From sequence record PZ179880.1: 64,000 nucleotides of DNA; one strand, 5' to 3'. Within the stretch, counting starts at the first letter, position 1. Each line of letters begins with the position of its first letter. The notes below the pieces were generated by a model. The model was given only the letters and a program-made list of their open reading frames with translations, ran no database searches and had not been told where the DNA came from. Shown piece by piece: positions 15,558 through 58,410 of the stretch. Source of the stretch: a phage. Position numbers and translations under genes: made by a program.

Positions 15558-16418
15558 TTACACCGCCATTTTTCCTTTAATAGGAGGGTGTGATTCGTAA
15601 CCTTTAAGAACGAAATCTTTAGGCCTGAGTTTAAGAACATATTCCAATTGTTCTTTAGTAGAAAGATAGCGGAATTTATAAGGCAATCCGCCTATTACCA
15701 GTTCACAAAGCTCTTTAGGTTCACGACGCAAAATTTCTTTACATTGTTCTACGTGATTCATATAGATATGAGTATTACCGCCAGAAAATATCAAATCTCC
15801 TGGAATAAGATTACACATCTTAGCTACAATATGAACTAATGCAGCATATGATGCAATATTAAATGGAAGACCGAGGAAAACATCTACCGAACGTTGATAC
15901 CACTGCAAATCCAAATAGCCATTACGCACATTAAACTGATAGAACATATGACAAGGCGGTAATGCCATATATTTAAGTTCAGCTGGATTCCACGCCGACA
16001 CAATTTGTCGCCTATCATTTGGTAGTTTTTTAATACGATCAATAACTTCTACAATTTGGTCTACACCGCCAAAATCACGCCATTGTTTTCCGTAAATTGG
16101 ACCAAGTTCACCACTATGATATCCTAAATCTTTTGCTTGGTTTTCGTAATTTTCATCCCAGACTGTTTTGCCTTGAATTAATGAATCGTGTTGAATTAAT
16201 CGTAAATCATTGACATTTGTGCTTCCTGATAAAAACCAAAGTAGCTCAGCAATGCAAGCTTTCCAGGCGAGCTTCTTAGTTGTTACTGCAGGAAAACCTT
16301 TACTTAAATCCCAGCGCAATTTAGTACCGAACAAAGCAATTGTTCCTGTGCCTGTTCGGTCATCAGTTTCATAGCCATTTTCCAGGATATCTTTAATTAA
16401 AAATTGGTATTGTTTCAT
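15558..16418 (-). CDS. td: thymidylate synthase
   Basis: 286 aa, contiguous (no intron); ThyA active-site region ALPPCH. Confidence 0.95.
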   Translation of the reverse strand: MKQYQFLIKDILENGYETDDRTGTGTIALFGTKLRWDLSKGFPAVTTKKLAWKACIAELLWFLSGSTNVNDLRLIQHDSLIQGKTVWDENYENQAKDLGYHSGELGPIYGKQWRDFGGVDQIVEVIDRIKKLPNDRRQIVSAWNPAELKYMALPPCHMFYQFNVRNGYLDLQWYQRSVDVFLGLPFNIASYAALVHIVAKMCNLIPGDLIFSGGNTHIYMNHVEQCKEILRREPKELCELVIGGLPYKFRYLSTKEQLEYVLKLRPKDFVLKGYESHPPIKGKMAV

Positions 16419-55794: not shown

Positions 55795-55818
55795 AAAAAA
55801 GGACTCCCGAAGGAGTCC
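55795..55818 (-). terminator. intrinsic terminator downstream of soc
   Basis: Same GGACUCC-UUCG-GGAGUCC hairpin + U6. Confidence 0.65.
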
Positions 55819-55824
55819 TTGAAT

Positions 55825-56070
55825 TTATTCACCAGTTACTTTCCACAAATCTTCGTTTGCAGTAATCCATTCAGTACGTTGATTTTCTTCATATACTGTA
55901 GAATATGCTGCTTTTTCTGAAGGGAATATCTGATAATGAGCGCCAGAAATTTTGTGAACGTCAGAATAAAGAGGGAAAGCTACAGAAATTTCCTTTCCTT
56001 CAATTTTCTTATTTCCATCTAATTTTTGCTCAAATGTTTTAATATTAACATAACCGCGAGTACTAGCCAT
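55825..56070 (-). CDS. soc: small outer capsid protein Soc
   Basis: 81 aa; late promoter TATAAATA 30 nt upstream; terminator downstream. Confidence 0.85.
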   Translation of the reverse strand: MASTRGYVNIKTFEQKLDGNKKIEGKEISVAFPLYSDVHKISGAHYQIFPSEKAAYSTVYEENQRTEWITANEDLWKVTGE

Positions 56071-56085
56071 GTAATTCTCCTTTAT

Positions 56086-56295
56086 TTAAATTACATGACT
56101 ATTTATAATAAATTCTTGTGGAACGTTAAAATACCCAATTTTAGTTAATATAACAACATCACCGTTAATAATTACCGGAGAATAATCGGCTGGAGCATTA
56201 AACTTCCAATGAGCTCTAATATTATATCCATCAGAACCAAATGCTCAACTAGCCGGTCTCCCGGCTTTTTGCCATGCATAAAAATCAAATTTCAT
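56086..56295 (-). pseudogene. 70-codon frame interrupted by in-frame TGA (codon 17)
   Basis: ATG at 56293-56295 overlaps upstream stop (ATGA); TGA at 56245-56247; frame continues 52 codons to TAA at 56086-56088. Confidence 0.4.
56100..56107 (-). promoter_or_regulatory. late promoter TATAAATA for soc
   Basis: Reverse complement is TATAAATA, 30 nt upstream of soc ATG. Confidence 0.65.
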
Positions 56296-56492
56296 TTTGA
56301 ATGCTCTATAATTAATTTTAAGGCTTCTTCATGCACCTTACCTAATTGTATATGTCCAGTTTTAATTGTGTAAGCTTTGTGGAGCTGATTAGATAGGAGC
56401 TCGTATGTGAGCTCCTTGTCATAATTTTTAAATAGCTGGTCAATACGTTTCTTGTGGGCTTTCTTAAGTTGACGTTTATTTAAACGAGCCAT
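56292..56492 (-). CDS. hypothetical basic protein (66 aa)
   Basis: ORF abutting gene 56 stop. Confidence 0.45.
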   Translation of the reverse strand: MARLNKRQLKKAHKKRIDQLFKNYDKELTYELLSNQLHKAYTIKTGHIQLGKVHEEALKLIIEHSK

Positions 56493-57010
56493 TAATAACC
56501 TCGGTCTTGACGAGCGAAGTTTTCAGCATTTTTCAGATAATAAAGTTTAAAGATTTCTTCAGCCGTAAGACCGAGACCTTGGAACATGTTCAGAACGAAA
56601 TGAAGAATATCAATCATTTCGAATTTAATTTCCAACTGGTCTTGTGGAGACAAATCAGTAATCAGAGTTTCACGTCGTTCACCATGTTGAGCTTTCCAAG
56701 GCTTCCATACAGCAGATGCATCTTTTTCACCATTGCTCATACCACCAAGAGAAGTCAATAGTTCGCGGAATTCATCATCAATATAATCTTTCTGATTACG
56801 CAGCCAATCAACAACTTCACCCGCAGTAGCCAAATCATCAGGATGACGGTTATATTCAGGTTTATCTTTAGCTAAACGAACCTGTAGAGATTTCTGCATA
56901 TCAAGCATAACCTGCAGCGGGTCTTTTTCATCACCGAGAATATCCCAGTATTCATTTTGAGCTTTATCAGCGCCTTCGATCAGTTGACTACATTCGTTAA
57001 AGTAAGCCAT
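56492..57010 (-). CDS. 56: dCTP pyrophosphatase gp56 (MazG-like)
   Basis: 171 aa from MAYFNECSQ; middle promoter upstream. Confidence 0.85.
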   Translation of the reverse strand: MAYFNECSQLIEGADKAQNEYWDILGDEKDPLQVMLDMQKSLQVRLAKDKPEYNRHPDDLATAGEVVDWLRNQKDYIDDEFRELLTSLGGMSNGEKDASAVWKPWKAQHGERRETLITDLSPQDQLEIKFEMIDILHFVLNMFQGLGLTAEEIFKLYYLKNAENFARQDRGY

Positions 57011-57044
57011 TATTTTTCCTTTCAATTCATTAATAAGTTAAATA

Positions 57045-57070: not shown

Positions 57071-57071
<1 letters not shown>
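57045..57071 (-). promoter_or_regulatory. MotA-dependent middle promoter for gene 56
   Basis: Minus-strand AATTGCTTAC, 13-bp spacer, TATAAT. Confidence 0.5.

Positions 57072-58410
<1,339 letters not shown>

Follow-up and report, generated by a model that had tools for sequence, protein, structure and literature searches.

The interrupted reading frame between soc.2 and soc in this phage genome can be assigned, from its position and homology, to soc.1, which in T2-type Tequatrovirus phages is a small accessory gene of the early class. The TGA that breaks the frame at codon 17 is very likely a matter of ordinary gene loss and not of programmed stop-codon readthrough: the window, by which we mean the whole 64,000-nucleotide stretch of sequence record PZ179880.1 analyzed here, carries an inherited opal allele, very likely a young pseudogene. 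We found no evidence for new translation biology. The stop is best read as an ordinary inherited nonsense allele of a known accessory gene, and the covarying hairpin beside it is the only mildly interesting feature left.

The window comes from a T4-like phage of the genus Tequatrovirus, and the region is 99.9% identical to a Tequatrovirus group that includes ES19, ES21, ZN18, a51, phage 107, and DCP2. On the minus strand, the gene order is dam, gene 56 (dCTPase; 56492 to 57025), soc.2 (66 codons, phrog_5782; 56292 to 56492), the interrupted frame (56086 to 56295), soc (small outer capsid protein gene, PF16855; 55825 to 56070), and mrh.2. The interrupted frame occupies the annotated position of soc.1 in PP01, Shfl2, T2, and T6, with which it shares the order 56-soc.2-soc.1-soc, the length, and the ATGA start overlap. 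In T4, segF stands in place of soc.2 and soc.1. As far as the citation in PMC5931544 indicates, the names soc.1 and soc.2 trace to Belle, Landthaler and Shub (2002) and the T2 region that corresponds to segF in T4.

Translation of the frame yields MKFDFYAWQKAGRPAS*AFGS...SHVI*, with asterisks for stops. Sixteen sense codons (56248 to 56295), which are still translatable, are followed by TGA (56245 to 56247), 52 codons without a methionine, and TAA (56086 to 56088), all exactly where the first-pass annotation of this DNA had placed them. The ATG at 56293 to 56295 is coupled to the TGA stop of soc.2 by an ATGA overlap, and the 66 codons of soc.2 are thus the upstream open reading frame with which that annotation had described an overlap. 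Downstream, soc starts with the ATG at 56070. Thirty nucleotides upstream of it on the minus strand lies TATAAATA (56100 to 56107), which, from established knowledge of the T4 consensus, we take to be a T4-type late promoter box for soc; the late promoter had been correctly located within the 3' end of the interrupted frame. A canonical intrinsic terminator, with a 9-bp stem followed by TTTTTC, was called after soc on the minus strand (55799 to 55820), at the same place as an annotated terminator in GiZh.

With codon 17 read as arginine, the frame matched Pfam DUF7422 (PF24197) over residues 1 to 69 of 69 (E = 2.9e-46), with a score of 155.9 bits against a curated cutoff of 27 bits, and it also matched phrog_5773. 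Because the homology to DUF7422 extends over the full length once codon 17 is restored, the open frame is more than a chance occurrence. The same 210 nucleotides are annotated as an intact gene of 69 codons plus stop in PP01 and Shfl2. The window is identical to PP01 soc.1 at 207 of these 210 positions, and its conceptual translation has 98.6% identity to PP01 Soc.1. The difference from soc.1 of T2, T6, PP01, and Shfl2 is that codon 17 is TGA and not CGA, with the result that the phage does not make the 69-residue protein in that form. A functional member of DUF7422 would need an uninterrupted frame; that of the window is broken at this codon, which makes it a nonsense allele or pseudogene of the family.

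Over the first 170 nucleotides of soc.1, TGA instead of CGA is the sole difference from PP01. Comparison of the alleles traces the stop to a single transition from C to T at 56247 of the coding strand, which converted CGA (Arg) to TGA. In the alignment, codon 17 was CGA in PP01, Shfl2, T2, T6, GiZh, Sf24, SHBML-50-1, fPS-65, one viral contig (L008), and one metagenome contig (L016). It was also CGA in the Mosigvirus-type phages SHSML-52-1 and phiEC1, AAA (Lys) in Mosigvirus moskry and TH58, and CCT or CCG in Karamvirus. Among the sampled alleles, TGA was confined to the relatives of the window. The alignment with T-even phages, which the first-pass annotation had proposed as a check, therefore turned up neither unrelated sequence nor a conserved stop: the relatives have a sense codon at position 17. 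Of the explanations that annotation had offered, a recently inactivated gene is the one borne out, by a single CGA-to-TGA change set against near-identical intact soc.1 alleles.

The stop is found in many independent records. An exact 57-mer with TGA was matched in 19 GenBank records, which represent about 17 different genomes if duplicate RefSeq entries are discounted. The corresponding CGA 57-mer was matched in 74 records, and a version in which TTT precedes TGA in 4 records of HP3 phages. Two independent assemblies, Logan SRR29703557 and ENA ERZ16268256, added further carriers; both were found via contigs that encode exactly the Soc.2 protein of the window. The carriers come from several laboratories and countries, among them the USA and South Korea. 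The survey relied on the GenBank phage set and exact-protein look-ups, and IMG/VR and metagenomes added little. Scans of IMG/VR for the TGA and CGA alleles returned one contig each, a related-locus search of viral contigs returned 7 loci, and of 15 matches in the metagenome scan L016 alone was soc.1, the others being chance matches.

All sampled TGA carriers had a common haplotype in the 3' part of gene 56, with 0 to 9 differences from the window. All but one of the CGA phages in which this segment was fully covered had 56 to 59 differences over about 208 nucleotides. The carriers also had in common a derived synonymous C at 56396, within soc.2. The metagenome contig L016 combined the same gene 56 haplotype with CGA at codon 17 and T at 56396, a combination that fits the ancestral state of the TGA lineage. 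Because all carriers possess both the gene 56 haplotype and 56396C, a single origin of TGA followed by spread is the simplest history, and the comparison supports it. In YUEEL01, the TGA allele lay on a Shfl2-like downstream haplotype, which is best explained by recombination. The allele was found on at least three local haplotypes in total. We considered recurrent mutation as the reason; given the common gene 56 haplotype and 56396C, it is less likely than a single origin with later recombination.

The surroundings of gene 56 are mosaic. Gene 56 of the window (about 56493 to 57010) has, for the most part, only about 55 to 85% nucleotide identity to PP01; its last 40 nucleotides or so, together with all of soc.2, soc.1, and soc, are nearly identical to PP01, which places a sharp joint near 56560. 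This joint adjoins the region where T4 carries the homing endonuclease SegF. Upstream of gene 56 there is a presence/absence polymorphism, read from the first 620 nucleotides of the loci L050 to L059. The window (57071 to 57850) and most TGA carriers have dam at this place. PP01, UFV13, and the assemblies L051 to L053 have a 342-residue gene and a 66-codon reverse open reading frame instead.

Homologues of soc.1 were present in 243 phage records, which belong to Tequatrovirus, Mosigvirus, Karamvirus, and, with partial homology, Moonvirus. In a collection of 5.8 billion proteins, Soc.1 formed only 11 clusters at 90% identity. The ratio dN/dS of intact soc.1 was 0.15 among the copies of Tequatrovirus and 0.25 when these were compared with Mosigvirus-type copies, which indicates that the intact gene is under purifying selection. 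For codons 18 to 69 alone, the ratio was 0.23 to 0.25; the truncation therefore removes constrained sequence. In one carrier, the ENA assembly (ERZ16268256 scaffold_29, positions 1393 to 1640; L053), the stop was accompanied by a 1-nucleotide insertion after codon 40, outside any homopolymer run, and by a TTT-to-TCT change at Phe56 (F56S), a residue that is invariant in the family. These lesions suggest continued decay or, since they come from a single assembly, assembly errors. The only other change seen downstream of the stop among carriers was a synonymous one at 56119, and these substitutions are too few to measure selection. In all other sampled carriers, the 52 downstream codons were free of further stops and frameshifts. 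With only a few substitutions among the sequences, this intact frame has almost no power either way.

The history that we propose is as follows. The C-to-T change made codon 17 opal, and translation from the soc.2-coupled ATG would end after 16 residues. It is the youth of the mutation alone that would leave the other 52 codons open to the eye. This opal allele would have arisen once, been inherited, and moved among isolates by recombination and ordinary descent, and full-length Soc.1 would be made only via ordinary, unprogrammed UGA leakiness in E. coli. The hairpin next to the stop would be older than the stop and unrelated to it. The comparisons show which gene this is, what the mutation was and from which codon it came, that many independent sequences carry it, and that recoding signals are absent. 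From them we infer that soc.1 with TGA has no functional product and that Soc.1 is dispensable, at least under the conditions that these phages meet. The wide geography of the TGA allele and its presence on at least three haplotypes mean that it is not strongly deleterious.

Nonsense and frameshift alleles of nonessential phage accessory genes provide the closest parallel, with a single disabling change in otherwise near-identical sequence, restriction to one lineage, and further lesions in one descendant (L053). Compared to a typical private mutation, the soc.1 stop is somewhat more widespread, occurring in about 20 distinct isolates. Other disrupted forms of soc.1 were also seen. The entries P0006, P0009, P0010, and P0011 are frameshift chimeras with the +1 frame; P0011 is the original T2 entry "ORF soc.1" (40 amino acids). 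Such broken alleles would fit a dispensable gene, and some may be sequencing errors. In ZJUN4 (L028, positions 389 to 598), the usual start of soc.1 is lost and a shorter soc.2 lies upstream.

Under programmed readthrough, the stop would be expected to be conserved among relatives that keep the extension. Here, codon 17 is CGA in the 74 records that matched exactly and in every Tequatrovirus sampled that is not a carrier, and the TGA is limited to one lineage. The in-frame UGA, the long open frame behind it, and the stable hairpin nearby recall the A1 protein of Qbeta, which is made by programmed readthrough of a UGA, and the selenocysteine insertion elements (SECIS) of the fdhF type. In soc.1, unlike these systems, the stop is not conserved, the hairpin lies upstream and is common to sense-codon alleles, no 3' stimulatory structure was found, and the downstream frame has decayed in one carrier. 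The suggestion of readthrough or recoding in the first-pass annotation thus found no support beyond the basal leakiness of UGA, the stop being restricted to one lineage, the hairpin lying 5' of it, and no suppressor tRNA having been detected.

The hairpin is the one part of the locus that may have a story of its own. The palindrome AGCCGG-TCTC-CCGGCT (56251 to 56266; 6-bp stem, 4-nucleotide loop, GAGA in the sense RNA) was confirmed immediately 5' of the TGA, as the first-pass annotation had described it. It occurs once in the 64-kb window, with 0 copies expected by chance. The sense-strand RNA folds stably, at -13.9 kcal/mol in a 36-nucleotide context (z = -3.2). The hairpin lies within codons 10 to 15 (K-A-G-R-P-A), in intact and TGA alleles alike. 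We considered whether the TGA extends or stabilizes it and rejected this, as the CGA allele folded at -15.0 kcal/mol and the TGA allele at -14.4 kcal/mol over 46 nucleotides. The same annotation had called the palindrome terminator-like in the opposite orientation, a claim that proved borderline. A T-run, TTTTTG, does follow the stem on the plus strand; however, T makes up only 4 of the 8 bases that come after the full 6-bp stem, and a scan for consensus terminators made no call at this hairpin on either strand. On the sense strand, the stem is followed by AGTTGAGC.

The Ala-Gly...Pro-Ala codons (GCN GG / CC NGC) leave no freedom at four of the six stem pairs. Each of the two remaining pairs links one third codon position to another, and each covaries via synonymous changes. 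One changes from GCC/CCG to GCT/CCA in GiZh, SHBML-50-1, fPS-65, and, in another genus, PG7; the other changes from AAA/GCT to AAG/GCC in CC31, RZH, and L038. These compensatory replacements, of C:G by T:A and of A:T by G:C, occur across Tequatrovirus and Karamvirus. The same codons were compared in the loci L024, L033, L048, L043, L026, L029, L038, and L044. In myPSH1140, only the outer pair was lost, and in Moon-like phages the stem was lost or degraded. Across 15 distinct sequences, 91% of cells were paired, 7 cells had changed on both sides, and none had changed on one side only; none of 500 shuffles reached the observed pairing or covariation score. This pattern is suggestive of a selected structure independent of the TGA and, coming from a small sample of related sequences, is not proof of one. 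The hairpin may be a conserved structural element.

The pattern leads to the possible, rather doubtful, reading that the stem is a selected RNA or DNA structure kept across Tequatrovirus, Mosigvirus, and Karamvirus, maintained by compensatory synonymous changes and serving as an intragenic attenuator, transcript-end, or processing element between the early 56-soc.2 unit and late soc; in the TGA lineage, freed from coding constraint, it would be turning into a full terminator, as the HP3 variant suggests. A weaker variant has low-level readthrough keep Soc.1 partly functional. As to what the hairpin might do, we would guess, with little confidence, that it serves the early 56-soc.2 transcripts, before late soc is reached, either as an attenuator within the gene or as an element that sets their end or their stability. 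In the HP3 phages (L006, positions 700 to 745, HP3.2, corresponding to 56245 to 56275 of the window), the codon before TGA is TTT and not AGT, through two substitutions. In the resulting hairpin, AAAAAGCCGG-GAGA-CCGGCTTTTT, the stem measures 11 bp, a U-run comes after it on the sense strand, and the predicted energy is -19.3 kcal/mol. It matches the rho-independent terminator pattern on that strand and has the form of a canonical bidirectional terminator inside the dead gene.

T4 offers a structure in an analogous position. In NC_000866 (L004, positions 1719 to 1734; about 16218 to 16233, minus strand), the 5' part of segF contains the hairpin GACGCC-GAAA-GGCGTC with TTTTGG directly behind it. 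This hairpin is intragenic and terminator-like, lies about 50 nucleotides after the gene 56 stop, and has been listed as a "56/segF" terminator (PMC5931544). The two have in common a 6-bp GC-rich stem and a 4-nucleotide loop in a small early open reading frame after gene 56. The hairpin of the window differs in having no U-run after the stem on the sense strand and no terminator call. A second structure lies in soc.2, where a perfect 8-bp inverted repeat, AGGAGCTC-6 nt-GAGCTCCT, occupies 56395 to 56416 of the minus strand. The TGA-linked C at 56396 is part of the 3' arm of this repeat, where it forms a G-C pair; all CGA phages would have G.U there.

The PeSL elements of T4-like phages are composite cassettes of a stem-loop and an early promoter (PMC4122927). 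The T4/PST consensus is TTTACW-N17-TAYWAT with the stem-loop AGNA-loop-TCNT (PMC4122927). We considered the soc.1 hairpin as a dispersed repeat of this type and rejected it, as it has a single copy in 64 kb. PeSL cassettes are repeated and intergenic, whereas the hairpin of the window is single-copy, lies in coding sequence, and resembles neither TTTACW-N17-TAYWAT nor AGNA-loop-TCNT.

Ordinary gene loss, as we read the locus, is compatible with some leakage through the stop. UGA is basally leaky in E. coli, where Trp-tRNA competes with RF2. In reporters in E. coli BW25113, basal UGA readthrough amounts to about 2% at 37°C and about 4% at 25°C (PMC10570021). By analogy, a trace of unprogrammed Soc.1 with tryptophan at position 17 is plausible, and the wide spread of the TGA allele could also mean residual function via such leakage. 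If a few percent of Soc.1(W17) made by the host Trp-tRNA were useful, the allele would be down-regulated rather than dead. Position 17 varies in the family (R, K, or P), so a product with tryptophan might fold; the downstream frame is still open in most carriers, and the allele persists in many isolates. We nevertheless consider it unlikely that the leakage is useful. No readthrough-promoting element specific to the TGA allele was found, the stop is not conserved outside one lineage, and L053 has both a downstream frameshift and F56S. In addition, the carriers have diverged so little that an open downstream frame is expected under neutrality.

The C-to-T change might instead have been selected for an effect on regulatory DNA or RNA, creating a stem-loop plus early promoter upstream of soc. 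Directly after the hairpin, TCGAGC becomes TTGAGC, which is closer to a good -35 hexamer, and the promoter scan listed TTGAGC-16-TATAAT at 56248 to 56221 on the minus strand (10 of 12 matches, with a perfect TATAAT). Cassettes of this general kind are described in T4-like phages (PMC4122927), and the HP3 phages, of the same lineage, have gone on to lengthen the stem, which there has 11 bp and a U-run behind it. However, this AT-rich region has no excess of promoter-like matches (11, compared to 7.4 ± 2.8 in shuffles), the motif fits neither the T4/PST PeSL consensus nor a dispersed repeat, having one copy in 64 kb, and the spacer is 16 nucleotides, not 17. Selection for a new promoter is thus highly improbable, and the -35-like hexamer may be due to chance.

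Decoding of the UGA by selenocysteine insertion, or by an opal suppressor tRNA that the phage itself encodes, has in its favor that the UGA adjoins a stable hairpin and that the tRNA-Arg of T4 is mutable to an opal suppressor, as is known from classical genetics. Bacterial SECIS elements are located immediately 3' of the UGA. The soc.1 hairpin is on the other side of the stop, the 5' side, and CGA alleles have it too, the 61 nucleotides downstream have no unusual fold (z = -1.7), and neither this fold nor an Rfam search revealed a SECIS hairpin immediately 3' of the UGA. The Rfam search gave no relevant match, its one hit being a chance IBV_D-RNA match at 56061 to 56107 (19 bits, E = 0.33). 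No tRNA gene was found within the 64-kb window; in the tRNA cluster of the carrier phage 107, none of the 11 tRNAs has a UCA anticodon, and the tRNA-Arg has UCU. Moreover, soc.2 itself terminates at TGA 48 nucleotides upstream of codon 17. Both forms of this decoding are already effectively refuted.

A sequencing error in this one genome, another option of the first-pass annotation, or an assembly error has nothing in its favor beyond the prior that single-base errors happen and is already refuted by independent records: the same TGA occurs in 19 + 4 GenBank records from different laboratories and in the two independent SRA/ENA assemblies, always linked to the same flanking haplotype.

The opal allele has consequences for annotation. 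In carrier genomes, the locus is either left empty or filled with a spurious 38-codon out-of-frame open reading frame. In the record of phage 107, this is a TTG-start frame in the +1 frame of soc.1, called a "putative transmembrane protein" (56172 to 56288 of the window, minus strand; L001, positions 533 to 649). It matched no PHROG family and looks like a gene-caller artifact that fills the space in which the nonsense mutation has left no gene to call. The locus should be marked as a soc.1 pseudogene (opal allele) in the roughly 20 Tequatrovirus genomes concerned that have been sequenced.

In the literature searched, we found no paper that assigns a function to Soc.1 or Soc.2. The RefSeq and PHROGs labels "head protein" and "virion structural protein" had no experimental support in the literature searched, and they may simply follow the gene name. 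An AlphaFold2 model of Soc.1, built from a 6-sequence alignment, had a mean pLDDT of 62.6 and a pTM of 0.42, too poor for fold searching. Natural loss is evidently possible for Soc.1 (DUF7422), even though more than 200 T4-like genomes conserve this protein and purifying selection acts on it there. Since Soc.1 has been lost in nature, the TGA phages are natural knockouts that can be compared with near-isogenic intact relatives such as PP01. Comparison of these knockouts with PP01-like phages could reveal what Soc.1 does.
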